IMG/VR virus record: IMGVR_UViG_2690316311_000004
Coordinates: 1-10,226 of that record
DNA from: a virus
Taxonomy: Duplodnaviria; Heunggongvirae; Uroviricota; Caudoviricetes
DNA: 10,226 bases
Direction: 5' to 3' (one strand)
A model generated the notes under the pieces. The model searched no databases. It saw nothing but the letters and a program-made list of their open reading frames with translations, and was not told where the DNA came from. Positions 1 to 10,226 of this stretch are shown here, piece by piece. A program made the position numbers and the translations under genes. The stretch's first letter is position 1. Every line of letters begins with the position of its first letter.

Positions 1-541
1 ATACGTCGTGCCCGTCTTCCTGTAACTGGTTCAGCAGATTCATCAGCAGTGAGTTCTCCGTCAGGCCGAGAACACCAGACGGCGAATGAATCAGGCTGCG
101 GTAGCCGGGCTTCAGTGGGGCGCTGTATTCTTTTTTGTCTTCCAGCTTGATCGCCTCCATAATGGCGGGCATGAAGCCTGACAAGACCTTCTCCACTTTT
201 GTTTCTTGTTGTCTTAAACGTTTCTCGCATTCAATGAAGTAGCGTCGTACCTGACGACCTTTTTCGTTACGCTCGACCATTGCTAGTTCTTTGGCTGTAT
301 CGAGGGTGAGGTGGTACTCTTTGCGGTTGTGGCCGCCTCTACCAGATGTTTGCTTTCCCAAATTGGAAAGCAAAATATAGTCTTGATTTTCAATGAATTC
401 GTATTCTGAAATGCGATTTGTAATCCATGCTGCAAACACCTTTTTAACACCTAAAAAAGCGTGCAGATCGCGGGCATTGCAAAGTAGGGCTGTTTCGTTA
501 GATATAGTGCCGTTGAATACGGGGATGAGTTGACTGGTCAT
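1..541 (-). CDS. Phage antirepressor, AntA/KilAC-type (N-terminal ~180 codons; 3' end runs off the window start)
   Basis: Minus-strand ORF with ATG at 541-539 preceded by AAGGAGG (plus 547-553) 5 nt upstream; no stop before position 1. Translation [58 protein letters not shown]...[42 protein letters not shown] fits the AntA-type antirepressor N-terminal domain as I recall it. Not in the ORF track because truncated. Confidence 0.8.
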
Positions 542-570
542 GATGACCTCCTTTGAAGTTTTAGTTAGCA

Positions 571-593
571 ATCACCAGTTAGTAGCTGGTGAT
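571..593. promoter_or_regulatory. Perfect 8-bp inverted repeat ATCACCAG-ttagtag-CTGGTGAT about 30 bp upstream of the antirepressor start
   Basis: Visible; lies in the antirepressor promoter/5' leader region on the minus strand. Binding factor unknown. Confidence 0.35.
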
Positions 594-705
594 CGGGTGT
601 CAACTAGAGCCTTCAAAGACGCTCCGGGCATATTCCCCTTTTGGGTATTGTATTACGCCTCTCCACCCGACCTTTGTACGGATGTGACTATGCCAAATTG
701 CAGGC

Positions 706-735
706 ATAAAAAAGCCGCAAAGCTATCGGGTGCGG
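706..735 (-). terminator. Possible weak terminator ending the leftward operon
   Basis: Minus-strand RNA CCGCA-(11-nt loop)-UGCGG followed by CUUUUUUAUG; short stem and long loop. Confidence 0.3.
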
Positions 736-865
736 GTGACCGCTTTGAAGTTCTAGTGCGGTCAGTATGCGATAGCTCTGGCGGCATTGTCAAATCATGC
801 GCCACTGAGTCCAGCAATCTCTGCAATACCAATAGCGAGATAATCGCGATTCGTCAGGCGTGATT

Positions 866-1114
866 TTATTGCATATGTCTTAGCTCCACTGAAGTTGTGA
901 TTTTATATGGGTTGCCTTTTACCTCAATAACACGATGAGGATCATTTTTTAGCTCTTCCGTAATCTTCCGTAATCTTCTAACAGCTGAACTTCGGTGTTT
1001 ATAACGGTAAGTTACAGTTTCTTTTCTCTGCAATACCTCATCATTGCGGTACTTAGTCAAAACCATGACGACTTCAAACCTGACGCCGTTGTGTGCAACC
1101 ATAATCTGCTTCAT
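866..1114 (-). CDS. Small basic hypothetical protein (82 aa), translationally coupled to the upstream methyltransferase
   Basis: ATG at 1114-1112 overlaps the methyltransferase TGA (ATGA overlap); GGGAG about 9 nt upstream. Product MKQIMVAHNGVRFEVVMVLTKYRNDEVLQRKETVTYRYKHRSSAVRRLRKITEELKNDPHRVIEVKGNPYKITTSVELRHMQ is K/R-rich with no family I recognise. Contains a 10-bp tandem repeat that sets the C-terminal frame. The ORF track extends it to 1234, which I consider unlikely. Confidence 0.45.
   Translation of the reverse strand: MKQIMVAHNGVRFEVVMVLTKYRNDEVLQRKETVTYRYKHRSSAVRRLRKITEELKNDPHRVIEVKGNPYKITTSVELRHMQ
955..978. repeat. Tandem repeat of the 10-mer CTTCCGTAAT (2.4 copies) inside the 866..1114 ORF
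   Basis: Directly visible: cttccgtaat at 955-964 and 965-974, then cttc at 975-978. The period is not a multiple of 3, so copy number determines the reading frame of the last ~30 codons. Confidence 0.9.
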
Positions 1115-1761
1115 GCTGCACGCTCCCGCCCCTGGTTGTCTGTTGGTGACAGCGGAGCATTGCTGAATGCATTTGTTAATCCGCCAATATCCAACGCGTA
1201 TCCAGGGTGTAGTTGCACTGCCGGGTCTTCGCACTGATTACCCCAAACATCGAAACCATGAGACGACTGGCGGGCGAACAGTTCAATGCGAGAAACATCG
1301 CCTAACAATTGCACAAGTTTTTCACGAACGATATCTGGTTTTCTTGAATGCTCAAGCCGCGGTGCGGTAAATGACTGAACGATCCCTGCATTAATGCGCG
1401 TAGGTAGTTTTCCCTTTACCGCAAACAGGCAATCTTCACTATTGGCGCGAGTCATGTGCCCCATACCCATAACCAGTTTATCTGGTTGTCGACTACCACA
1501 TTTTATCCACGTGAAGCCCTTCATGGTCATCAGACGGAATCCCCAGGCTTCAACAACTTTTAGTGCTTCGAGTGGTTGTGTTGGCACCCACCACATGGCC
1601 AACAGACAGTTTTCATCGGCCAAATCCCACACAGGAAGGCGGCAGATATCCAGCACACTCATAACCGGATATTTAAAACCGGCACCGCGATTACCATCTG
1701 CGGCTTTGTCCCGGTATACCCAGGGTGGATCTGCATAGATTAGTGTGTATTTCTTAGTCAT
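1111..1761 (-). CDS. MT-A70-family (beta-class) N6-adenine DNA methyltransferase
   Basis: 216-aa ORF with ATG at 1761-1759. N-terminal LIYADPPWVY (DPPW catalytic motif) and C-terminal RIELFARQSSHGFDVWGNQ are characteristic of the MT-A70 family as recalled. Stop overlaps the start of the downstream small ORF. Confidence 0.85.
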   Translation of the reverse strand: MTKKYTLIYADPPWVYRDKAADGNRGAGFKYPVMSVLDICRLPVWDLADENCLLAMWWVPTQPLEALKVVEAWGFRLMTMKGFTWIKCGSRQPDKLVMGMGHMTRANSEDCLFAVKGKLPTRINAGIVQSFTAPRLEHSRKPDIVREKLVQLLGDVSRIELFARQSSHGFDVWGNQCEDPAVQLHPGYALDIGGLTNAFSNAPLSPTDNQGRERAA

Positions 1762-2053
1762 AAACCACCCCGCAACATCCTATGCCGCTATAGTCGCCAC
1801 GGCGAAGGCCGTTACCTTTTGTGATACATTGGTCCCTGCGAACCGCGATCCTTGCACGCTCAACATCACCAGAAGCAACATCCATACACTGAAGCCAAAG
1901 GTGGGCGGCAATGCGGAACTGCCCTTTTTTCTCTCTTTCAATCGCGCGTTTTTCGATCTCTATCGCCGCAGGAGTAACGGCAACAACCTTTGAAGGGCTG
2001 CGCATTGAAACCTTGTTCATGTGATATTTTTCAAGTCGGCTTAACTTTCTCAC
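1754..2053 (-). CDS. Hypothetical protein; start uncertain (GTG 2053, or ATG at 2020 or 2005)
   Basis: ORF overlaps the methyltransferase start by 8 nt, suggesting co-translation. The GTG at 2053 has no good SD; the ATG at 2005 has AAGG 5 nt upstream. No recognisable domain. Confidence 0.4.
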   Translation of the reverse strand: MRKLSRLEKYHMNKVSMRSPSKVVAVTPAAIEIEKRAIEREKKGQFRIAAHLWLQCMDVASGDVERARIAVRRDQCITKGNGLRRGDYSGIGCCGVVYD

Positions 2054-2162
2054 TTAATCCAACCATCTCTGAAAATTAATGCCAGCAGATAAAGCCATGC
2101 AGAAACAGAGGCCAGGAATAAGTACCATCCTGACCATTTGCTCCAGTGCCTTAGCAGCACAC

Positions 2163-2411
2163 TCATGCCGCGTTGCTCACGGGACGATATACACGTTGCT
2201 GAACAGGAGGTTTTTTACCCTGGAACTCTGCCGGGCTTGCTGCCTGACGTTCATCAAGCCAACGCTCAACTTCATCACGGTTCCATGCGCAGCGTTTATC
2301 GGTGATATACCAGCGTTTAGGAAATTCCCCTGCGCGCTCCATACGGTCGATAGTGCTCCATGACAGTGGCACCACCGCCAGGAGTTCCTTCTTACCTAAT
2401 GCACCTTTCAT
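2163..2411 (-). CDS. AlpA-family phage transcriptional regulator / excisionase-like HTH protein
   Basis: 82-aa ORF with ATG at 2411-2409 and AGAGAGG SD 6 nt upstream. LLAVVPLSWSTIDRMERAGEFPKRWYITDKRCAWNRDEVERWLDERQA matches the AlpA/Xis-type winged-helix pattern (S-STIYR-IK-G-FP-...W...EV-.W) from memory. Confidence 0.75.
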   Translation of the reverse strand: MKGALGKKELLAVVPLSWSTIDRMERAGEFPKRWYITDKRCAWNRDEVERWLDERQAASPAEFQGKKPPVQQRVYRPVSNAA

Positions 2412-2433
2412 AAATACCTCTCTTGGTTGCAGT

Positions 2434-2452
2434 GCGGCGCGCGTGGCGCCGC
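2434..2452. other. Perfect 7-bp GC-only inverted repeat (GCGGCGC-gcgtg-GCGCCGC) between the annealing-protein and AlpA-like genes
   Basis: Visible in the sequence; no T-run follows on either strand, so it is not a canonical intrinsic terminator. Confidence 0.4.
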
Positions 2453-2460
2453 GGTGGTGG

Positions 2461-3342
2461 TTACATAGATGTTTCGTTTAATTCTTCCCGACGAACGCTG
2501 TAAACGTCGGTGGCTTTTGCCAGCAGTTCGTCATCATCTGAAAGTTTTTGTGCAATGTATTTGTAAGCCTTATCCAGTTCGGAGACAGTGCTGTAATTCA
2601 TCGCTGCGCTGGTAAAGGCCATCAGCATTTCTTCTGGATCACGGCTATCCGCTTTACGCGTTTGCTCATCAGGCTTTTTCGCTGGTTTAGCGTTGATCAG
2701 ACTGTTCATTCCCGCAGCAGTGGTCGTTTGCGGAGTAATGTCTCGCTCAACGCGCGGTGCCGTTTCCTGTAATTCGTCAGGGGTGTAAACACCGAGAAGT
2801 ACATCAGGAGCGTGCAGGCGAGCCCATCGTTTCGTGCAAAGATAGGCAAGCTGCTGGCGCGGATCCTGTTCCCACAATGGAGAGTTACGCACTCCGGCTT
2901 GCGCCATACTGATGGTAAGCTCACGGGGTTCTGCTTCTCCTTTAAGAACTGCTGACACAGTTACCGTCAGATTCGGTGATTTATCTGTTTTGCCGTTAAC
3001 ATTCGACCAGTCACCGCTCCAGCGATAATTCAGGCGTGTCGCTAGCAGGCTGGAAGAGGATACGACCGCGTTTACCAACTGTGCTTCGTAGCCTAACGTT
3101 CCGTTTACCACATGCGTTTTCTGCGCCACGGCGAAAGGATTCATTCCCCACTGTGCCGCCTGCATGGTCACCGCCAGACAATCGGCAGGTTTGCCTTCAA
3201 GATGTTTCGGTACAGTCGCTTTGCTTTGTGACATCAACTCCGCGAAACGCACCAGTTGATTCATGCCCTCCGGGCTGAAGATTGCCGCAGCAGTACCTAC
3301 AGTTGCGCCTGGTTGTGATGTGATTGCGATATCATTGCTCAT
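2461..3342 (-). CDS. Single-strand annealing recombinase, Bet (Red-beta)/RecT superfamily
   Basis: 293-aa ORF whose ATG overlaps the exonuclease stop (ATGA). Segments MQAAQWGMNPFAVAQKTHVVNGTLGYEAQL, QQLAYLCTKRWARLHAPDVLLGVY and ERDITP parallel lambda Bet (ANQYGLNPW..., KAMIQCARLAFGFAGIY, ERDITP) as I recall it. Sits directly after an exonuclease gene. Confidence 0.85.
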   Translation of the reverse strand: MSNDIAITSQPGATVGTAAAIFSPEGMNQLVRFAELMSQSKATVPKHLEGKPADCLAVTMQAAQWGMNPFAVAQKTHVVNGTLGYEAQLVNAVVSSSSLLATRLNYRWSGDWSNVNGKTDKSPNLTVTVSAVLKGEAEPRELTISMAQAGVRNSPLWEQDPRQQLAYLCTKRWARLHAPDVLLGVYTPDELQETAPRVERDITPQTTTAAGMNSLINAKPAKKPDEQTRKADSRDPEEMLMAFTSAAMNYSTVSELDKAYKYIAQKLSDDDELLAKATDVYSVRREELNETSM

Positions 3343-4160
3343 ACGTACATATCCTGTTTACGTGCCCAGTCAGGGCGTTTAATAATTTCCACTCCGCCCC
3401 ACTCATCGTTGATGCGGCATTCGTGATAGGTATTCAGATCCCGGCGGAACAGAGCGTGCCCGGCATCGACATCCGGCGCATCCAGCTCGAACACGCGTAC
3501 CGGATACCGACCACAATCAATGCTTTCGCTCACGGCAAGAAAGAAAAAACCATGTGGCTGACCAGTAACCCTCATTGCGCCTTCGCGGTACATTGCGTCC
3601 TGCACGTGGTAGCGGAACTCCTCGATGTGGCGTGCAAAACGGTCCATATCTGCAACCTTTTTCACGTCGACGATCACGTTGTGCTCGTTCAGCCATTTGT
3701 CTGGACGAATTCGGCACAACTCACCCGTATCTTCATCGTTCCAGTACATTGATGCTTCGCAGTAACCATGTGCTTCCAACATCCAGCGTGCCGCCGGGTG
3801 AGCCATTGCGCTATCACGCATCAGCTCCAGTTTTCGCCACTGCTCTGCATCAAGTACCGAAATCCCCATATCCGCTACATCACGAATAAATGCCTCTTCG
3901 TCAGCTTTACCTTGTTTTGTCCGACGATCGAATTTCGGTGAAACGATGAAGCGTTTGTCAAACTCTCCAGGTTCCAGAAGCAGACAGTGCAGAGCAGTAC
4001 CCATGTCCAGTGCAGACTTCTTCTCTTCGTCTTCCGGAGCAGCCTTCACCCATTTCAGAAGGGCAGGGTTCTTAGCCACCATATCTAGCTGCGACTTACT
4101 CACGCCGTCACCGGCGTGGTAGTCCTCGTTGCTGATATCGAAATAAATTCCCGGATTCAT
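3339..4160 (-). CDS. Exonuclease VIII-like (RecE C-terminal type) PD-(D/E)XK nuclease, recombination partner of the annealing protein
   Basis: 273-aa ORF. N-terminal GIYFDISNEDYH, a PDKW...VIVDVKKV (D...D-x-K) block and HVQDAMYREG (Q-x3-Y) fit the PD-(D/E)XK fold of prophage exodeoxyribonuclease VIII-like proteins (recalled). Coupled to ORFs on both sides by ATGA overlaps. Confidence 0.8.
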   Translation of the reverse strand: MNPGIYFDISNEDYHAGDGVSKSQLDMVAKNPALLKWVKAAPEDEEKKSALDMGTALHCLLLEPGEFDKRFIVSPKFDRRTKQGKADEEAFIRDVADMGISVLDAEQWRKLELMRDSAMAHPAARWMLEAHGYCEASMYWNDEDTGELCRIRPDKWLNEHNVIVDVKKVADMDRFARHIEEFRYHVQDAMYREGAMRVTGQPHGFFFLAVSESIDCGRYPVRVFELDAPDVDAGHALFRRDLNTYHECRINDEWGGVEIIKRPDWARKQDMYV

Positions 4161-4456
4161 GCCGCGTCCCTCTGCCCATCAAGCTGATCCGCCAGCTCCC
4201 AGCGGGCGATAATTGCCATTGCCTCTCGCCGATAGGCATCCATCAGTTCTTCGAACTCAGGGCTGTCTTTAGCAGCCTCCAGCACTTCCTGACGAACGCC
4301 TTTGCCTGTTACAACGTCAAAAGTTGAGGCCAGTTGATGAAGCCGGATACTCTCAATCAGTTCGACTTGTCGGTCATATAGCTGTTCTGACAGGCGGTAG
4401 TCCTTGTCGAATGCCAGCATGATTTTTTGAAGATTTTTCTGCTGATTAACGTTCAT
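4157..4456 (-). CDS. Hypothetical protein occupying the gam-like position upstream of the exonuclease
   Basis: ATG at 4456-4454 (MNVNQQKNLQKIM...) with GGGAGGG SD 8 nt upstream. The ORF-track start at 4471 lies inside that SD, so I prefer 4456. No confident family assignment; not obviously lambda Gam. Confidence 0.6.
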   Translation of the reverse strand: MNVNQQKNLQKIMLAFDKDYRLSEQLYDRQVELIESIRLHQLASTFDVVTGKGVRQEVLEAAKDSPEFEELMDAYRREAMAIIARWELADQLDGQRDAA

Positions 4457-4458
4457 TA

Positions 4459-4611
4459 TCAGCCCTCCCATATCTCGTTATCGTTGGCCACATCGCGAGC
4501 TTCTTTGCTGACGAAAGCCCACTTAATACCTTCCTGTAAGGTGCGGAACTTCCAGCTCATGAATCCGCATGCAGTAACGCAGTACCAACCGTTGATGATT
4601 TTCCACTGCAT
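4459..4611 (-). CDS. Small ORF (50 aa) at the kil-like first position of the leftward operon
   Basis: ATG at 4611-4609 with GAGG SD 9 nt upstream. Product MQWKIINGWYCVTACGFMSWKFRTLQEGIKWAFVSKEARDVANDNEIWEG. Its stop lies in the SD of the next gene. Absent from the ORF track, presumably under a length cut-off. Confidence 0.35.
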   Translation of the reverse strand: MQWKIINGWYCVTACGFMSWKFRTLQEGIKWAFVSKEARDVANDNEIWEG

Positions 4612-4667
4612 AACTTGTTACCTCGGCCTGTTATCGTTGAGGTAATAATTATGCGTATCTGGTTTGA

Positions 4668-4673
4668 TGTCAA
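4668..4673 (-). promoter_or_regulatory. Candidate -35 hexamer (TTGACA on the minus strand) of a pL-like leftward early promoter
   Basis: Perfect TTGACA on the minus strand about 55 nt upstream of the 4611 start. The -10 is ambiguous (CATAAT/TAATTA at about 4645-4652). An operator palindrome lies just upstream at 4693-4707. Confidence 0.35.
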
Positions 4674-4692
4674 TAGATATGAGTTAAAAAAA

Positions 4693-4707
4693 TTACCCAT
4701 TAGGTAA
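4693..4707. promoter_or_regulatory. Operator-like palindrome TTACCC-att-AGGTAA (copy 1 of 6)
   Basis: Visible palindrome, extendable to ATTACCCATTAGGTAAT (4692-4708). Sits between the repressor-gene terminator and the leftward promoter. Confidence 0.6.
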
Positions 4708-4717
4708 TCGAATAGGC

Positions 4718-4744
4718 AATAAAAAAGCCGCCTTCTGGCGGCTT
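4718..4744 (-). terminator. Intrinsic terminator of the repressor gene (minus strand)
   Basis: Minus-strand RNA reads AAGCCGCC-AGAA-GGCGGC followed by TTTTTTATT: a 6-7 bp GC stem with 4-nt loop and U-run, 20 nt downstream of the repressor stop. Confidence 0.75.
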
Positions 4745-4764
4745 ACTTACTGAAAAATATGATT

Positions 4765-5349
4765 TTATTGTTTGTTTTTTTCGTTCTGGTTGATGACAAA
4801 TTCAATGTAACTTTCGATCTTTGCTTTCTCGGTTTCGGGTAACAATGCGTAGCGCGAGCGATCATAGTTGATGGTCGCAGGGTCGTGCGGGTGAATCAGT
4901 AATTCATAGCCGTGACGCCCGAATGCGGATGCAACATTCTCCAGGGTGGAAATGGAAACGCTGACCTCATTGTTTAACAGGCGGCTGATTGTCACTTGGG
5001 CGACGCCGGATGCGCGGTGTAGTTTTCCCTGCGTTGAAAGGTCGCGGCTTTCGCTCATCCAGCGTTCCAGGTTGTGAGCCGCCAGCTGACCTATATCGCT
5101 CGGGCCGACAGGCTGAAAACCCTCCTGAGAAAGCGAGCGATCAATATCAAGCCAGTTACGGGGTTTATTGGCGGCAGCTTCAATTTTTCGTGCAACCTGG
5201 TCGCCGATAACCTTCTTGCCAAGAGCCCAGCGGTTTACCAGATTTGCCTGAGTTCCAAGTTTTTCTGCCATCCGCGTCTGAACACCATTGAATTCACGGT
5301 CGATCAAGTCGTTGAGATTTTGCCTGCGGACGTCCTGGATACTTTTCAT
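4765..5349 (-). CDS. Prophage repressor candidate with two tandem HTH (XRE/CI-type) domains and no recognisable S24 peptidase domain
   Basis: 194-aa ORF divergent from the Cro-like gene. First HTH around QTRMAEKLGTQANLVNRWALGKKVIGDQVARKI; second around LHRASGVAQVTISRLLNNEVSVSISTLENVASAFG. No Ala-Gly/Ser-Lys autocleavage module seen. Poor SD, consistent with a near-leaderless maintenance transcript. Confidence 0.8.
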   Translation of the reverse strand: MKSIQDVRRQNLNDLIDREFNGVQTRMAEKLGTQANLVNRWALGKKVIGDQVARKIEAAANKPRNWLDIDRSLSQEGFQPVGPSDIGQLAAHNLERWMSESRDLSTQGKLHRASGVAQVTISRLLNNEVSVSISTLENVASAFGRHGYELLIHPHDPATINYDRSRYALLPETEKAKIESYIEFVINQNEKNKQ

Positions 5350-5372
5350 TTTCTGGAAAATCGCCTCATATA

Positions 5373-5391
5373 TGAATCAGTAGATGATTCA
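5373..5391. promoter_or_regulatory. Unique perfect palindrome TGAATCA-gtaga-TGATTCA about 25 bp upstream of the repressor start
   Basis: 7-bp arms with 5-bp spacer, visible in the sequence. A different motif from the recurrent TTACC/GGTAA palindrome and not repeated elsewhere in the window. Confidence 0.4.
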
Positions 5392-5404
5392 ATTTAAAGC
5401 AATA

Positions 5405-5419
5405 TTACCCAACAGGTAA
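5405..5419. promoter_or_regulatory. Operator-like palindrome TTACCC-aac-AGGTAA (copy 2 of 6), OR-like region
   Basis: Visible palindrome in the divergent repressor/cro intergenic region. Confidence 0.6.
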
Positions 5420-5449
5420 ATGCACCTCATAGGTAACTATCCTTGATTT

Positions 5450-5478
5450 TTGTTACCTTATGGGTGAATATTTATTAT
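5450..5478 (+). promoter_or_regulatory. Candidate pR-like promoter for the Cro-like gene (-35 TTGTTA 5450-5455, 17-bp spacer, -10 TATTAT 5473-5478)
   Basis: Hexamers read by eye; an alternative -35 is TTGATT at 5443-5448. Operator copy 3 lies between -35 and -10. Confidence 0.4.
5453..5467. promoter_or_regulatory. Operator-like palindrome TTACCT-tat-GGGTGA (copy 3 of 6, one mismatch)
   Basis: Visible; overlaps the proposed pR spacer. Confidence 0.5.
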
Positions 5479-5503
5479 CTGAAATAAATATCAGGCAATA
5501 GCT

Positions 5504-5734
5504 ATGAGCGATAACGGACATTTCGATTTCAAAAAGCACTGGCTTGCACTTACTCCGGATGAGCGTGAAGCCTTCGCACAGGAAGCCGGAACAACGAGTC
5601 ACTATATCCAGACTCACTTAACAGGTAAGCGCAAAATGCCAGGTAAGGTATTGATGAATGGGCTTTTTAAAGCCTGTAAAACAAGACAATGGCTGCGCTC
5701 AAAAGCAGAACTGGCATACTTCTTCTACTCATGA
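5504..5734 (+). CDS. Cro-like / YdaS-like small HTH regulator
   Basis: 76-aa ORF divergent from the repressor. HTH-like segment EAFAQEAGTTSHYIQTHLTGKRKMPGKVL. Followed by an intrinsic terminator. Weak SD (AGG 8 nt upstream). Confidence 0.65.
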   Translation: MSDNGHFDFKKHWLALTPDEREAFAQEAGTTSHYIQTHLTGKRKMPGKVLMNGLFKACKTRQWLRSKAELAYFFYS

Positions 5735-5756
5735 TATCCAGCTACAACCCTCTGTA

Positions 5757-5782
5757 GACCGCCACCCGGCGGTCTTTTCATA
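5757..5782 (+). terminator. tR1-like intrinsic terminator after the Cro-like gene
   Basis: GACCGCC-accc-GGCGGTC followed by TTTTCATATCTATT: 7-bp GC-rich stem, 4-nt loop, T-rich tail. Confidence 0.65.
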
Positions 5783-5789
5783 TCTATTC

Positions 5790-5804
5790 GTACCTCAAAG
5801 GTAA
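5790..5804. promoter_or_regulatory. Operator-like palindrome GTACCT-caa-AGGTAA (copy 4 of 6, one mismatch)
   Basis: Visible; immediately downstream of the tR1-like terminator. Confidence 0.45.
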
Positions 5805-5884
5805 TAAAAAACCAAATCTGGTTGATCTTTTTTTTGTGTCAGCACAAAATGACCGTAATCCCAATACTAATAACAGGGCTTACC

Positions 5885-6085
5885 ATGGAAATCATTACAC
5901 GTATTGATGCCGCAAAGCGCGGACTTAAACGCTACTACACCGGAAAACCATGTAAGCATGGACATGACAGTGAACGCTGGGTTTACAACGGACACTGTGT
6001 TGAGTGCACCATGGAATCAAACCGTCGCATCAGGGCAGAGATTAAGCAGATCATGATTAATTCCTCCCCACAACACTCAAGCTGA
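5885..6085 (+). CDS. Small Cys/His-cluster (zinc-ribbon-like) hypothetical protein in the cII-like position
   Basis: Product MEIITRIDAAKRGLKRYYTGKPCKHGHDSERWVYNGHCVECTMESNRRIRAEIKQIMINSSPQHSS has C-x-H-G-H ... H-C-x-E-C spacing suggestive of metal binding. Start ambiguous: ATG 5885 (weak SD), ATG 5849, or the ORF-track TTG at 5822. Confidence 0.5.
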   Translation: MEIITRIDAAKRGLKRYYTGKPCKHGHDSERWVYNGHCVECTMESNRRIRAEIKQIMINSSPQHSS

Positions 6086-6100
6086 TAGCGGAGATTAATC

Positions 6101-6934
6101 ATGAGCAGACATGCAACAGATTGGGCCTGGGAGACAGATCCAGGTAGCTCATCATTAAAGCTCATACTGCTCTCGATGGCTGACAGAGCCGATGAATATA
6201 ACCTCTGCTACCCCAGCATAGAACGCCTCGTTAAAGACACTTGCCTGAATAAAAAAACCGTGCAGGCCGGGCTTATATCGCTCATGAAAATGGGGCTTAT
6301 TTCAGATACCGGAGAGAGAAAGGGAGCGACGAAAAGAGTGCGGGTTTTCTCTCTTAATATAACCAAAAACGGGAACATTAAAGGCAACCGGGAAGGGGGT
6401 AATGAACCCGAAAACGGTAATGTTACCGAAAACGGTAATGTTACCGAAAACGGGAATATACCCAAAAACGGGATGTTGAATGATCCCAAAAACGGGATGT
6501 TGAATGATCCCAAAAACGGGATCCAGAACCAGTCATATAACCAGTCATTTAACCAAGAGAGGGAGAGCAGGACAAAAAGCGGGGATTCTGTGCCTCATGA
6601 CCCCGGCGCAAACAACGCCGTGATGAATAACTTTGTTCCTCCTGGTGGGCCAGGGCAATTAGGCAAATTTGTCATGCATGAACAATGGCAACCATCAGAT
6701 GACTTTCTTCGGAAAAGCTCATTGCAGGGGATCTACCTGGACAGTCTGCCAACGGCACAGGAACTTGCAGAGTTCAGAATTTACTGGATGGCTGAGGGTA
6801 AGGCATACCATCAGGCGCAGTGGGAGCAGAAGCTGGCAAGGCGGCTGCAGATTAGCAGACAGAAGCAATCAACATTACCTGATAACAACGTTCCGCACTG
6901 GAACAGCCCTGAAGCATGGGAGGATTTCTTGTGA
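6101..6934 (+). CDS. Replication initiator (O-like): N-terminal winged-helix replication HTH domain, iteron-encoded linker, C-terminal DnaT-like domain
   Basis: 277-aa ORF with GGAG SD 8 nt upstream. N-terminus WAWETD...SSLKLILLSMADRADEYNLCYPSIERLVKDTCLNKKTVQAGLISLMKMGLIS is replication-initiator HTH-like. C-terminus GKFVMHEQWQPSDDFLRKSSL...ELAEFRIYWMAEGKAYHQAQWEQKLARRLQISR closely parallels E. coli DnaT (GKFAMYPDWQPDADFIRL...[29 protein letters not shown], recalled). Stop overlaps the P start (GTGA). Confidence 0.85.
   Translation: MSRHATDWAWETDPGSSSLKLILLSMADRADEYNLCYPSIERLVKDTCLNKKTVQAGLISLMKMGLISDTGERKGATKRVRVFSLNITKNGNIKGNREGGNEPENGNVTENGNVTENGNIPKNGMLNDPKNGMLNDPKNGIQNQSYNQSFNQERESRTKSGDSVPHDPGANNAVMNNFVPPGGPGQLGKFVMHEQWQPSDDFLRKSSLQGIYLDSLPTAQELAEFRIYWMAEGKAYHQAQWEQKLARRLQISRQKQSTLPDNNVPHWNSPEAWEDFL
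6361..6552. repeat. Origin-like iteron array inside the O-like gene
   Basis: Seven copies of a CC(C/G)AAAACGG(G) core at 6363-6373, 6407-6417, 6426-6435, 6444-6454, 6461-6472, 6485-6496 and 6509-6520, with 18-bp then 24-bp periodicity. Several are palindromic (ATCCCaaaaacGGGAT, GTTACCgaaaacGGTAA), resembling lambda ori iterons (TCCCTCAAAACGAGGGA, recalled). Followed by a tandem 12-mer CCAGTCAT(A/T)TAA x2 at 6529-6552. Confidence 0.7.
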
Positions 6935-7716
6935 ACAACGTTTTTACCGCAATACAAAACCGTGACGGAGAAGCTCTTTCTCGCATGTCAGGTTATGAGC
7001 ATCAGTACGTCAACAATGACAACGTAGTGAACATGTCAGCAGAGAGGCTTGTTGATGCCCTTTTCAAACAGTTGAAACAACTGTTTCCGGCGGCAGTGGT
7101 AACCAACCTGAAGACGCCAGAGCAGGAAGTTGCTGCAAAACAGCAGTGGATTGCTGCGTTTGCCGAAGGGGGGATCCGAACCCGTGAACAGGTTTCTGCT
7201 GGTATGCGCCACGCCCGCGCCAGTGATTCTCCGTTCTGGCCGTCGCCAGGGCAATTCATCAAGTGGTGCAAAGACAGCAAGATGGTTCTTGGCGTCACCA
7301 TTGACGATGTGATGACGGAGTTTCACCGGTACAGCAAGGAAAAAAGTTTATATCCTGGTGGTCCCGAAAGATTCCCGTGGCGGCATCCGGTTATGTACTG
7401 GGTCGTATGTGATACCCGCCGTGCAATGTATCAGCGCCAGCTTAGCGAGATAGAGGTTGAGAAACACGCGCGCAGGCTGCTCGATGATTGGGCGAAAAAG
7501 GTGGCTTCCGGACAGCAGATACCCGATCCGGTGATCAGCATACAGGCAAAGCCAGAACCCATGAGTACGCCTCCGGACACAGGGAGAGACGTTTACCATC
7601 CACCAGGGCGAAGTTTCGGGTGCATGCCTAACGCCGCCACCCTTGGGGGAATAACACCGGCGCAGTGGCTGATGGAGGAATACAGGCGAGGAAAGGCGGA
7701 AGGATTTATCAAGTAA
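6931..7716 (+). CDS. Replication protein P homologue (DnaB helicase loader), lambda P family
   Basis: From GTG 6931 (GGAGGA SD 6 nt upstream) the product VNNVFTAIQNRDGEA... aligns with lambda P MKNIAAQMVNFDREQ...; QQWIAAFAEGGIRTREQVSAGMRHARASDSPFWPSPGQFIKWCKD matches lambda P RQWVLAFRENGITTMEQVNAGMRVARRQNRPFLPSPGQFVAWCRE (recalled). The ORF-track ATG at 6916 is the alternative start. Confidence 0.9.
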   Translation: MNNVFTAIQNRDGEALSRMSGYEHQYVNNDNVVNMSAERLVDALFKQLKQLFPAAVVTNLKTPEQEVAAKQQWIAAFAEGGIRTREQVSAGMRHARASDSPFWPSPGQFIKWCKDSKMVLGVTIDDVMTEFHRYSKEKSLYPGGPERFPWRHPVMYWVVCDTRRAMYQRQLSEIEVEKHARRLLDDWAKKVASGQQIPDPVISIQAKPEPMSTPPDTGRDVYHPPGRSFGCMPNAATLGGITPAQWLMEEYRRGKAEGFIK

Positions 7717-7721
7717 TACCA

Positions 7722-7741
7722 GCGCGATAGCGCATTTTTTT
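7722..7741 (+). terminator. Weak tR2-like terminator after P
   Basis: GCGC-gata-GCGC followed by ATTTTTTT, 6 nt after the P stop. The stem is only 4 bp, so confidence is low. Confidence 0.35.
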
Positions 7742-7753
7742 ACGTTTCGATAA

Positions 7754-7768
7754 TTACCTGTTAGGTAA
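7754..7768. promoter_or_regulatory. Operator-like palindrome TTACCT-gtt-AGGTAA (copy 5 of 6; perfect, extends to ATTACCTGTTAGGTAAT)
   Basis: Visible; upstream of the candidate promoter -35 at 7788. Confidence 0.6.
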
Positions 7769-7787
7769 TAAAATATTCTAAAATCTA

Positions 7788-7816
7788 TTGATTTCGTGTC
7801 TTATGTGGTTTTTAAT
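7788..7816 (+). promoter_or_regulatory. Candidate sigma70 promoter for the DUF1064/Ea22 block (-35 TTGATT 7788-7793, 17-bp spacer, -10 TTTAAT 7811-7816)
   Basis: Hexamers read by eye; flanked by operator copies 5 (upstream) and 6 (overlapping the -10 and start region). Confidence 0.45.
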
Positions 7817-7830
7817 TACCTCAGGGGTAA
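7816..7830. promoter_or_regulatory. Operator-like palindrome TTACCT-cag-GGGTAA (copy 6 of 6)
   Basis: Visible; ends 3 nt before the ATG at 7834 and overlaps the proposed -10. Confidence 0.55.
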
Positions 7831-7833
7831 ATC

Positions 7834-8178
7834 ATGAGAAAACAGATACAGGCTCTTGGTCGACTCAAAACAGGCCAGATGAACAAAACAGAATCTGCGT
7901 ATTGCCAGCACCTTGAGCTGCGTAAACGTGCAGGAGAAATCGTCTGGTATCGATTTGAGGGTATCAAGCTTCGGTTAGCTGACAACACGTTCTATACGCC
8001 CGATTTTGCTGTGATGCTCGCCACCGGCGAGATGGAACTGCACGAAGTGAAAGGTTTCTGGACCGACGACGCCAGGGTGAAAACCAAAGTCGCCGCAGAT
8101 CAGTATCCGTTCCGAATCATCGGGGTAACGGTTAAACCAAAGAAAGCAGGTGGTGGCTGGAATATCGAAGAGTTCTGA
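7834..8178 (+). CDS. DUF1064-like phage protein (putative nuclease-fold protein)
   Basis: 114-aa ORF with AGGGG SD 6 nt upstream. YTPDF...ELHEVKGFWT resembles the D...E-x-K-type core I associate with the phage DUF1064 family; assignment from memory. Confidence 0.65.
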   Translation: MRKQIQALGRLKTGQMNKTESAYCQHLELRKRAGEIVWYRFEGIKLRLADNTFYTPDFAVMLATGEMELHEVKGFWTDDARVKTKVAADQYPFRIIGVTVKPKKAGGGWNIEEF

Positions 8179-8239
8179 ATCGACGATCTTTTTAGTTATC
8201 AATGTAATCAATAAGTTATGTGGATAAGCGAGGGTAAAG

Positions 8240-8872
8240 ATGGAAAGTAATATCAAAGGGTTAGTTGCCGCCGGGCATGAGATGGCTTCGGAACTGAAAG
8301 CAGAATGTGGTGCCGTTGATATGCGCAGTGTGGCAAAGCTGATCAGCGATTTGGCAACGCAACTGGAAGTGCAACTGGTGCGTGCTAATGCGCTGGCCGA
8401 AGACCAGCAGAAAGCGATTGAGTCAATTAAGCAGGCTGATTCGGCTGTTAAGTTGGCACACGAGAAGTTTTCGGCGCTGGCGGCGGAGAATGCGGGGCTG
8501 AAACATGCAATGGCTGTAACTCTTGAGCATGTGTCGGTCACGGATGCAGGTCAGGCCGGAGTTGCTGCAATGATTATCAACGATGCCCTGCACCACAGCG
8601 AAACTCCAGCCACCGATGCTTTTCTGGCTGAAATTCGTGCGGCGGCTCGCAACGAGGGGATTAACTATACCGCAAGCCGTCTTGCTGCTGCTTTCAACCA
8701 CGGATTTATCAATAAGTCTTTACGTGAAGTTTTCGACGTTACGCGCATGATTCTGTCAGCGAAAGAAGAGTTGGCTAATGAACCGCACCCGATTGATGGC
8801 CTGTCCGGTGAATATGCGGAGAAATCCCTTGAAGAATGGGCGGAACAGATTCGCAAAGGAGCTGACAAGTGA
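8240..8872 (+). CDS. Ea22-like (ead/Ea22-like family, tentative) phage protein, paralogue A
   Basis: 210-aa ORF with a coiled-coil-like middle (ALAAENAGLK) and a C-terminal domain (ETPATDAFLAEIRAAARNEGINYTASRLAAAFNHGFI...RMILSAKEE) shared with the ORF at 9288..10073. The family name is a tentative recollection. Confidence 0.6.
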   Translation: MESNIKGLVAAGHEMASELKAECGAVDMRSVAKLISDLATQLEVQLVRANALAEDQQKAIESIKQADSAVKLAHEKFSALAAENAGLKHAMAVTLEHVSVTDAGQAGVAAMIINDALHHSETPATDAFLAEIRAAARNEGINYTASRLAAAFNHGFINKSLREVFDVTRMILSAKEELANEPHPIDGLSGEYAEKSLEEWAEQIRKGADK

Positions 8873-9279
8873 AGAGGATGATTTTTGTGGCGGCATTGCT
8901 GACCATTACCCAACAGGCGCAGGCTTCAGCAGTTATTGTGGCATCTACCGCCGCGACCACGGCTGCTGTAGCTGCTGCGAACTCTGCGAATATCGCAAAC
9001 CAACAGTCACAGCGTGCTGCCAATGCATCAGCCAGTGTTCACCCAATCGCCATTAAGGCCAGCAAGAAAAATATAGGTTTCATAACATGCGGCAAACGTT
9101 CTGACGAGGCTGTAGGTTCACTTGGATGTACGGTATATGGGGATAGTGAGAGTAGAGAAATTCCATGGAAAACGTGGCCCGGATATGTTCTCGGATCGAA
9201 GCTCACTGCCAGCTATGAAGTAAACGCCGTATCGTTTGATCACTATAACGGCGTGGCAACGGTCTATTTTGCATATTGA
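8869..9279 (+). CDS. Small secreted/periplasmic protein with Sec-type signal peptide; function unknown
   Basis: GTG at 8869 overlaps the upstream stop (GTGA), with AAGGAG 7 nt upstream. N-terminus MKRMIFVAALLTITQQAQA has n-region KR, an 11-residue hydrophobic core and an AQA-S cleavage-like site, followed by an Ala/Thr/Ser-rich linker and a ~70-aa C-terminal domain with two Cys. Confidence 0.6.
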   Translation: MKRMIFVAALLTITQQAQASAVIVASTAATTAAVAAANSANIANQQSQRAANASASVHPIAIKASKKNIGFITCGKRSDEAVGSLGCTVYGDSESREIPWKTWPGYVLGSKLTASYEVNAVSFDHYNGVATVYFAY

Positions 9280-9287
9280 GGCTCCGC

Positions 9288-10073
9288 ATGAAATTCTCCA
9301 AATTTTCTGAGTTGGTGAATCGTATTTTGTCCAACAACCACAGCCATCGTCGCGATATGGATGTAACGATCGTTGTTCATTCGCCTGGCAGCATTGGTTC
9401 AACACCCTCAGTTGAGGTTCAGTCAATTCACGCTGGTTTTGATTGGGATTCCGGGAAAGTGCTGATTTTCCCAGCACAGCCACTGACTACGCTAACACCA
9501 GAACAGATTACTGATATTACTGATAGTGTGCGCAAAGGTCAGTCCTGGCACGCATATCAGGAATATAAGAAGCATAAAGAGCAGTTGGAAAAATTATCGA
9601 TTGAACTTGATACCGCAAAACAGCGCATTGCAGAGCTGGAGGGTAATCGCGCGGCGCTGGCTGCGGAGAATGCGAGACTGAAGGCGATATGTGAGGATCG
9701 CCGCACGTTCATTATGAATGGCGTGCAGCTTGGTTTTATCAAAGTGCCAACAGTGGAAATAGATCCAGCTCTTGAAACAATTCGTATCGCCCTATCACCA
9801 CAAAAAACCACTCCTGCGACCGACACTTTCCTGGATGAAGTGAAGACTGAAGCACGCAAGGAGGGCGCTTACTTTGTGGCGAACAGAATGCTGGCTGCTT
9901 GGGAAGCTGGTTTTATTGATGATACTGCGAAGAACGCCGCGGATATTGCCCGGATGATTCTTACCTCTACTGAGTTTATGGCTAATGCGCGGGAAGGCGA
10001 TTTTGACCGCTCATTCTCTGATGGCGTTCTCGAAGATATCGCTGACCAGCTTCGAAAAGGAGGCAAACAGTGA
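9288..10073 (+). CDS. Ea22-like (tentative) phage protein, paralogue B
   Basis: ATG at 9288 with GAGG 6 nt upstream (the ORF track uses TTG at 9276). Coiled-coil IAELEGNRAALAAENARLK and C-terminal TTPATDTFLDEVKTEARKEGAYFVANRMLAAWEAGFI...RMILTSTEF parallel paralogue A. Confidence 0.6.
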   Translation: MKFSKFSELVNRILSNNHSHRRDMDVTIVVHSPGSIGSTPSVEVQSIHAGFDWDSGKVLIFPAQPLTTLTPEQITDITDSVRKGQSWHAYQEYKKHKEQLEKLSIELDTAKQRIAELEGNRAALAAENARLKAICEDRRTFIMNGVQLGFIKVPTVEIDPALETIRIALSPQKTTPATDTFLDEVKTEARKEGAYFVANRMLAAWEAGFIDDTAKNAADIARMILTSTEFMANAREGDFDRSFSDGVLEDIADQLRKGGKQ

Positions 10074-10226
10074 GCAAGATTGACTATCAGGCACTGCGCG
10101 AGGCGGCAGAAGCAATAAAAGTCGTGGCAACGCCGCAAAAATTGCTTGCGTTTCGTATGAAAGTCACACCGCAGGTTGTGCTGGTGCTGCTGGATGAACT
10201 AGAAGCTAAAAACAAACGCATTACAG
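10070..10226 (+). CDS. Partial ORF (5' end only), hypothetical phage protein
   Basis: GTG at 10070 overlaps the upstream stop (GTGA), with AGGAGG 6 nt upstream. Reads MSKIDYQALREAAEAIKVVATPQKLLAFRMKVTPQVVLVLLDELEAKNKRIT... with no stop before the window end. Confidence 0.45.
   Translation, partial: MSKIDYQALREAAEAIKVVATPQKLLAFRMKVTPQVVLVLLDELEAKNKRIT

Follow-up and report, generated by a model that had tools for sequence, protein, structure and literature searches.

The 10,226-nucleotide stretch analyzed here (positions 1 to 10,226 of IMG/VR virus record IMGVR_UViG_2690316311_000004; hereafter the window) is recognizable as the early region of a temperate podophage prophage of the phiV10/epsilon15 type (genus Uetakevirus), its positions 4400 to 8300 being 97% identical to Escherichia phage phiV10 and other Uetakevirus members. 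Between its lambda-P-like gene (P) and a gene for a DUF1064 protein, two palindromic operators, Oa and Ob, bracket the promoter-like sequence TTGATT-17-TTTAAT. We propose, with moderate confidence, that this sequence is a repressor-controlled early promoter, here called P3, and that it belongs to the standard layout of epsilon15/phiV10-like podophages. As judged from its operators, its conservation, and its likeness to the leftward early promoter PL, P3 is probably real, functional, and under repressor control.

An earlier note on this DNA, made from the sequence alone, had listed at this junction a weak terminator, two operator palindromes, and TTGATT-17-TTTAAT, and direct reading of the sequence located all of these at the positions it gave. 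It had also described one operator copy as overlapping the −10 and start region, and this is the case: Ob shares the last T of TTTAAT and covers about −8 to +9, a segment that includes the ribosome-binding site of the DUF1064 gene. The transcription start is predicted to lie near 7823, as inferred from the −10 position, and the center of Oa is about 62 bp upstream of it. Coordinates of all features are collected in Table 1.

A conserved operator pair between P and DUF1064

The motif TTACC-N5-GGTAA, with at most one mismatch, occurs seven times in the window against 0.18 expected, a count that none of 200 shuffles reached. Oa (ATTACCTGTTAGGTAAT) and Ob (ATTACCTCAGGGGTAAA) are both exact matches to the motif found at the OR and OL operators of the phage. 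Relatives were compared at 16 loci in phages and prophages of Escherichia coli, Salmonella, Enterobacter, Klebsiella, Citrobacter, Erwinia, Superficieibacter, and Scandinavium. At the P/resolvase junction the two operators stand 62 bp apart in 15 of these loci and 61 bp apart in the remaining one. At PL each locus also has two or three sites, OR has three, and one imperfect site usually follows the cro-like gene; the PL operator pair is 61 to 63 bp apart in all 16. The claim of a shared operator motif is thereby borne out: Oa and Ob carry the same palindrome as OR and OL, at a fixed spacing in all relatives examined.

The half-sites are 100% identical between genomes, versus about 50% identity for the central five bases. 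A set of 10 distinct E. coli copies shows variation at 0 of 20 half-site positions and at 7 of 10 central positions (P = 6e-5), although the copies sampled are related and mosaic, so that within-species statistics overstate their independence. Fixed half-sites around a free center indicate a site that is read by a symmetric protein dimer and not an RNA hairpin with a meaningful loop. This bears on the possibility that the palindromes act in RNA, as nut/boxB-like hairpins for antitermination, as processing signals, or by masking the ribosome-binding site of DUF1064. Each palindrome could fold into a stem of 5 to 6 bp and a 5-nt loop, similar in size to lambda boxB. The ribosome-binding site falls inside Ob, and Oa could pair with Ob on RNA (−18.2 kcal/mol). 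However, this fold is no better than those of shuffled sequences (z = −1.75), and the loops vary freely over fixed stems, leaving neither compensatory changes nor a conserved loop. The same motif also stands upstream of promoters, at untranscribed positions, and in divergent promoter regions. At the junction no Rfam family matched, the window's only Rfam match lying elsewhere, and family searches recognized no N-like protein among the small early proteins. We consider an RNA-level role highly improbable.

The presumed ligand of both operators is the product of the repressor gene, a full-length homolog of SPC32H Rep (Protein Data Bank [PDB] 5D50; E = 4e-42). Relatives down to 42% overall identity keep its N-terminal DNA-binding region, NLVNRW included, without change. 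All Rep homologs found share the same half-sites (40 phage records and 11 genome loci), and those of six enterobacterial prophages read TTACC/GGTAA. Distant homologs of the N-terminal domain in Paraburkholderia, Hydrogenovibrio, and Thiomicrospira (L017 to L021) are accompanied by no comparable repeated palindromes, and their context looks unrelated. In the GenBank record of epsilon15, seven sites carry the protein_bind label “repressor,” among them the Oa ortholog; Ob, the OR sites, and any promoter at the junction are unlabeled. Oa and Ob are best described as predicted operators of an SPC32H-type Rep repressor, a known but little-studied system. A literature search for the operator sequence returned only unrelated primers, and one paper describes the way in which this repressor acts on genes as not extensively characterized.

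A promoter-like core in register with PL

By alignment, P3 is a register-perfect paralog of PL. In its reading direction, PL begins with an operator; 19 nt separate this from CTATTGACA, which a 17-nt spacer joins to AATTAT, and the last T of that hexamer opens the second operator. The order in P3 is the same, with 19 nt between the operator and CTATTGATT and a 17-nt spacer from there to TTTAAT, whose last T opens Ob. CTATTGA is common to the two at an identical offset, and just as P3 is preceded by the hairpin behind P, so PL is preceded by the terminator of the repressor gene (4744-4725). The two cassettes align without gaps in 9 of 10 genomes compared, the exception being Klebsiella phage Kp4865-1, in which a spacing of 63 bp in the PL pair displaces PL by one base. 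From the −35 as far as the second operator, PL and P3 of Enterobacter phage Tyrion have almost the same sequence. The junction cassette persists despite exchanged neighbors, with either P or a DnaT-like gene upstream and either DUF1064 or a RuvC-type resolvase downstream.

The −35-like hexamer, TTGATT, has four of six consensus bases, is followed by a 17-nt spacer, and is likewise used as the −35 of the rightward promoter PR; TATTGA is invariant in 11 of 11 non-redundant relatives. Between Oa and the −35 lies an A/T-rich stretch (TAAAATATTCTAAAATCTA) that is possibly UP-element-like. It measures 19 nt in all relatives, as at PL, and most of them keep its TAAAAT after Oa. On a crude position-weight score built from consensus frequencies, P3 reaches 9.0 bits (top 0.09% of positions in the window), compared with 12.2 for PL, 11.5 for PR, and 10.1 for a candidate behind the cro-like gene. 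Of the seven best plus-strand hits in the window, four touch operators.

Within E. coli, 1 of 28 positions of the −35 to −10 core is variable, versus 13 of 31 in the neighboring non-operator intergenic DNA (P = 4.5e-4). TTTAAT is invariant, and the core is unchanged even where the DUF1064 allele is only 75 to 78% identical. In Salmonella and Klebsiella relatives the −10 reads TAAATT after an 18-nt spacer, with A present at −11. For the 2.9-kb immunity region of Salmonella phage SPN1S, the promoter scanner lists four promoter-like sites, three of which are PL, PR, and P3; the P3 ortholog that passes the scan is TTGAAA-18-TAAATT. Two other candidate promoters at the junction were rejected. One, TCGATA-16-TAAAAT (7747-7774, its TAAAAT just after Oa), has a −35 that is not conserved in relatives, and the other, a minus-strand hit AAGACA-16-TAGAAT (7802..7775), is not conserved.

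Several observations weigh against a working promoter. The −10 of the window and its E. coli clade, TTTAAT, is without A at −11; alternative −10 alignments (TTAATT and TAATTA) are no better, and P3 is absent from the promoter scan of the window because the second −10 position is T, not A. The predicted start gives a leader of ∼11 nt that begins at the ribosome-binding site, which is unusual but not impossible. Across genera, the hexamers are not significantly better conserved than the other inter-operator columns (7/11 versus 14/36, P = 0.14), so deep conservation extends over the entire cassette and does not distinguish the promoter within it. The likeness to PL could have been inherited from a duplication and not maintained for promoter function. 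All relatives have one operator specificity, and hence there is no repressor-operator covariation to exploit. Finally, a search that covered database annotation and secondary descriptions of epsilon15 and SPC32H found no experimental start-site or repressor-binding data, and the ZX5 paper mentions four predicted promoters without operators or positions. The earlier description of a plausible sigma-70 promoter thus stands as regards the hexamers, the 17-nt spacer, and the conserved PL-like layout, and is weakened at the −10; activity is a prediction.

The main rival to P3, one that we judge unlikely, is that the cassette serves only as a roadblock or insulator. The operators would bind repressor and back up the weak terminator, and the promoter-like sequence would be an inactive relic of a PL duplication. 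In the lysogen, stray rightward transcription into the resolvase, Ea22-like, and regulator genes would be blocked, and lytic expression would come from PR read-through. The element behind P fits such a role. Its hairpin, with a stem of four G-C pairs followed by a T7 tract, has a folding energy of −7.4 kcal/mol (z = −1.7) and escapes a terminator scan with a threshold of five pairs. GCGC-N4-GCGC and the run of seven T are kept in 16 of 16 relatives, the phiV10 annotation calls the hairpin a putative terminator, and we regard it as a putative, weak intrinsic terminator, through which transcription could plausibly read. Operators follow terminators after the repressor gene (at PL) and the cro-like gene (5790) as well as after P, and phiV10, epsilon15, and Tyrion have operators directly before terS with no evident promoter. 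The lack of A at −11 and the very short leader also favor a roadblock. Against it, TATTGA and the −10 positions show no change from genus to genus, the core is nearly invariant in E. coli while the adjoining DNA varies, and relatives carry a better −10, TAAATT, that passes the scan. Nor would a roadblock need an upstream operator held 19 nt from a −35.

The operator match, the conserved fixed spacing, and the PL-paralogous promoter-like core together make an independently repressed unit the best reading of the block behind P. The earlier note had proposed such a unit, and the conserved pair and the PL paralogy support this part of its claim, with promoter activity as a prediction. Two of its descriptions did not survive. 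P3 is not simply a “third” promoter, given a similar operator and promoter-like unit after the cro-like terminator (5790-5850) and 14 sites in phiV10. Nor is the cassette a departure from the norm, as comparison with lambda had suggested, being the standard epsilon15-like layout with an Oa ortholog already annotated in epsilon15. In lambda, the genes beyond P are reached by N-antiterminated PR transcription, and no separate operator-controlled promoter serves them.

A proposed mechanism and its precedents

In the mechanism that we propose, the weak terminator behind P would partly insulate the downstream block from rightward transcription, and sigma-70 RNA polymerase would restart at TTGATT-17-TTTAAT near 7823. 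The P3 transcript would cover DUF1064, the Eae/Ea22-like genes, and, in complete genomes, the predicted regulator at the end of the arm. In a lysogen, repressor would occupy Oa (about −62) and Ob (about −8 to +9). At Ob it would block the −10 and the start site, and the same tetramer would most likely contact Oa, six helical turns off, through its second DNA-binding unit. Binding to the two sites would be cooperative and would close the promoter into a small loop as at PL, and bound repressor would also obstruct polymerase leaking through the weak terminator. Induction, which in relatives proceeds via the LexA-controlled antirepressor Ant, would free PL, PR, and P3 together. P3 may, more speculatively, also gate later expression via the PHROG 536 regulator described below.

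Published descriptions of SPC32H Rep have it contacting DNA in tetrameric form, each DNA-binding pair being assembled between dimers; crystal contacts suggest octamers, inactivation is by antirepressor and not RecA cleavage, and the tetramerization domain is likened to that of DNA-looping regulators such as Rco of pLS20. The spacing of 61 to 63 bp at PL and P3, the fixed distance from Oa to the −35, which a promoter alone does not require, and the tetrameric homolog lead us to infer one tetramer on both sites. 

Long-range looping, in which Oa and Ob would mainly pair with OR or OL, 2.3 to 3.1 kb away, and thereby strengthen PR and PL repression, could draw on operator clusters at 4631-4707, 5405-5467, and 7753-7831 and on a repressor homolog that the literature describes as tetrameric. 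The suggested octamers would suit it, as would the perfect, presumably high-affinity sites at P3, one OR site being imperfect, and the distance to OR varies from 1.5 to 3.3 kb among relatives, which kilobase-scale loops tolerate. Yet the operators are paired at a fixed 61 to 62 bp around promoter-like content, as at PL, which calls for a local role, and similar sites genome-wide, up to 20 kb away, fit local control of each unit better. We give long-range pairing as the main role little credence; a local 62-bp loop appears more likely than one of 2.3 kb.

The closest reference systems are phages with the Rep/Ant system: SPC32H, SPN1S, and epsilon15 carry the same TTACC-N5-GGTAA at OL, OR, and the junction, with the 62-bp spacing. 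epsilon15 differs from the window in having a DnaT-like gene alone and RuvC where the window has a lambda-P-type gene and DUF1064. As in lambda, divergent early promoters have multiple palindromic operators, and an oligomeric repressor can bridge separate operators; looping of lambda CI between OL and OR strengthens repression. Unlike in lambda, the repressor of the studied relative is inactivated by an antirepressor and is not RecA-cleaved, and its sites are spread over the whole genome. The lambda comparison is an analogy only, and the proper references are epsilon15, phiV10, and SPC32H.

Extra repressor-controlled sites away from the main switch are familiar from other temperate phages, among them the flanking sites of phage 186, OFR of HK022 downstream of cro, and the “stoperators” of mycobacteriophage L5. 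The present sites resemble those of L5 and HK022 in occupying many short intergenic regions, one after the cro-like gene and others behind terminators, which fits an elongation block. The stoperators of L5 lack symmetry and work in a single orientation; the P3 sites are symmetric palindromes that also bracket promoter-like sequences. An additional repressor-controlled promoter or operator within an early operon is therefore a known arrangement in temperate phages and not a new regulatory principle, and separate silencing of the right-hand early genes by the repressor, which the cassette probably permits, is a sensible, unsurprising design.

Two operators a few helical turns apart at a promoter, bound by a tetrameric repressor, are also found with LacI (O1-O3), GalR, Rco (pLS20), and PrgX (pCF10). 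Rco is reported to bridge operators 75 bp apart, and PrgX to loop two operators as a tetramer. In contrast to these systems, 62 bp ranks among the shortest loop lengths known, looping by a Rep-type repressor is a prediction, and the proteins are unrelated to the repressor apart from the proposed similarity to Rco.

The P3 cassette is present in 542 of 5,426 complete E. coli genomes and also in Salmonella, Klebsiella, Enterobacter, and Citrobacter. The geometry common to PL and P3, with operators 62 bp apart around a promoter, offers a testable model for how one tetramer, in this case of unusual structure, might shut a promoter. Separate, directly repressed promoters would give a phage without recognizable N/Q-type antiterminators a way to express successive blocks. 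For epsilon15-type records, of which that of epsilon15 already carries the Oa ortholog, the gain is an unmarked second operator (Ob) and a candidate promoter, a well-supported prediction with a sub-optimal −10 in the window.

A repressor-less copy of the cassette occurs naturally in a prophage remnant of E. coli MLI109 (L027; NZ_CP117008.1, 1417462-1425586). There a Tn3-family transposon and a pemIK toxin-antitoxin pair stand in place of the repressor gene, the cro-like gene, and most of P, and the P3 cassette is intact together with the genes downstream.

Sites elsewhere in the genome, a second motif, and the genomic setting

The complete genome of phiV10 contains 14 operator sites against 1.26 expected. 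Intergenic DNA makes up 6.5% of this genome and holds 12 of the sites (P = 4.5e-13); the remaining two fall a short way past the annotated start of terS. Sites precede almost every transcription unit of phiV10, including the terminase, head, tail-fiber, lysis, and integrase genes, and the same five groups have sites ahead of them in epsilon15 and Tyrion. Repressor-type palindromes of phiV10 also lie in the divergent region beside a LexA box (CTGTATAAATACACAG, about 20826). The repressor thus appears to touch nearly every transcription unit. The start of phiV10 terS (41-715, with sites at 87 and 105) has probably been set too far upstream, because terS of epsilon15 and Tyrion is annotated with a start just downstream of the equivalent sites. 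At about 20480-20525 of phiV10, between the Bro-N and small Ant-like genes, a repressor-type palindrome forms part of a much longer perfect one, GGAGTGCTTATATTTACC-TTTGC-GGTAAATATAAGCACTCC, which could be a bidirectional terminator combined with an operator.

Within the window, the unit after the cro-like gene has an imperfect operator (GTACCTCAAAGGTAA) directly behind that gene's strong terminator, followed by ACCAAATCTGGTTG and the hexamers TTGATC and CAAAAT; a degenerate half-site, TGACC, also follows. Most relatives keep the unit, and its hexamer spacing differs among them. It may represent one more promoter under repressor control, serving the replication genes.

The P3 spacer carries one copy of a second motif, about CC(A/G)TAT(A/G)TGGTT with the palindromic core CCATATATGG, which stands in the window at 7801-7810, 5811-5824, and 5366-5375. 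Ahead of head, tail-fiber, and lysis genes, in phiV10, epsilon15, and Tyrion, it lies 46 to 58 nt downstream of the repressor sites. It adjoins the post-cro operator, where it overlaps TTGATC, and in Tyrion it is also found in the PL spacer; a related palindrome, TCATATATGA, stands just upstream of the repressor gene start. A generic ACC-N6-GGT palindrome was rejected as a description of the motif: it is not enriched, and only the A/T-centered version recurs. Assignment as a DnaA box or an integration host factor (IHF) site also failed, in that a DnaA box (TGTGGATAA) can be read in one copy only, that of phiV10 between DUF1064 and the gene after it, and not in the P3 copy.

The spacer motif (TATGTGGTT) might be the site of a second regulator, such as the cro-like protein or a late regulator, that decides the timing of expression in place of plain sigma-70 recognition. 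The motif is enriched in phiV10 (7 hits versus 1.35 expected) and lies downstream of repressor sites that precede the head, tail-fiber, and lysis genes, behind the cro-like gene, and, for some relatives, in the PL spacer; the P3 spacer is unusually conserved. The cro-like protein, one candidate binder, has a helix-turn-helix distantly similar to the N-terminal domain of the repressor (27% over 41 residues, E = 0.004 for the pair) and a recognition helix that differs from the repressor's; it matches PHROG 35, “transcriptional repressor,” and no Pfam family. On the other side, the position of the motif relative to the −10 differs among sites, the generic pattern lacks enrichment, and no binding protein is known. 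A second regulator at P3 has, in our estimation, a slim chance of being correct; it would be compatible with, and additional to, repressor control.

Taken genome-wide, the sites allow a broader but doubtful view, in which the repressor would be a direct repressor of the whole genome and not a lambda-style switch and the second motif (about CCATATRTGGTT) would mark the regulon of another phage regulator. Cassettes of terminator, operator, promoter, and operator (PL, the post-cro unit, and P3) and single sites ahead of the head, tail-fiber, lysis, integrase, and terminase genes would hold the units shut, and after removal of Rep by the antirepressor the second regulator would set the temporal order. 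That regulator could be the cro-like protein or the one ending the P3-driven block. In phiV10 this block extends to a predicted transcriptional regulator, p55, at the end of the early right arm. p55 matches PHROG 536, “transcriptional regulator,” and that family alone, searches of Pfam, NCBIfam, and PDB sequences having given no match. Were the block-end regulator to bind the second motif, P3 would be a gate to late gene expression.

Table 1. Positions of the junction cassette, neighboring genes, and related sites (window coordinates unless another genome is named)
Feature	Position	Strand	Details
Terminator-like element	7722-7741	+	GCGC-GATA-GCGC hairpin (7722-7733), then A, then T7 (7735-7741)
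Upstream operator Oa	7753-7769		ATTACC-TGTTA-GGTAAT, perfect 17-bp palindrome; core 7754-7768
A/T-rich stretch, Oa to −35	7769-7787	+	
−35-like hexamer	7788-7793	+	TTGATT, within CTATTGA
17-nt spacer	7794-7810	+	conserved motif TTATGTGGTT at 7801-7810; TGG invariant
−10-like hexamer	7811-7816	+	TTTAAT, 5/6 consensus, T at −11; last T is first base of Ob
Downstream operator Ob	7815-7831		ATTACC-TCAGG-GGTAAA; core 7816-7830, exact match
DUF1064 ribosome-binding site	7823-7827	+	AGGGG, inside Ob; ATG at 7834
DUF1064 gene	7834-8178	+	first gene behind P3; Pfam PF06356, PHROG 190
Eae-like gene, 136-aa protein, Ead/Ea22-like gene	8240-10073	+	from open reading frames, PHROG families, and phiV10 annotation
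Leftward operon	from 4611 downwards	−	
PL cassette	4631-4707	−	operator 4693-4707, 19 nt, TTGACA 4673-4668, 17 nt, AATTAT 4650-4645, second operator 4645-4631
Repressor gene	4765-5349	−	194 aa; presumed ligand of Oa and Ob; match to SPC32H Rep
OR region	5405-5467		three operators (5405, 5422 weak, 5453) and rightward promoter
cro-like gene	5504-5734		76 aa, PHROG 35
Post-cro unit	5790-5850	+	imperfect operator 5790-5804, TTGATC 5822-5827, 17 nt, CAAAAT 5845-5850
Small gene	5885-6085		
DnaT/O-like replication gene	6101-6934		contains probable iterons
lambda-P-like gene (P)	6916-7716		stop codon 7714-7716
Other operator matches in the window	4631, 4693; 5405, 5453; 5790		PL region; OR region (plus weaker 5422); after cro-like gene
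Operator sites of phiV10 (L022) outside the window	87, 105, 3252, 20497, 20877, 24692, 26870		
Second motif, phiV10 (L022, L001)	3310, 20923, 24741, 35118, 35533		
Second motif, epsilon15	2990, 24753, 35955		

Among the genes around the cassette, that for DUF1064 is labeled a Holliday junction resolvase in phage family libraries. Inside the DnaT/O-like gene, positions 6353-6564 hold an array of direct repeats of 18 and 24 bp (for example, ATGTTACCGAAAACGGTA), most likely the iterons of the replication origin. The single Rfam match of the window, to sRNA-Xcc1 (RF02221), lies in the left arm of the prophage, at 583-672 on the minus strand, and scores 62.9 bits (gathering score, 53; E = 9e-10).

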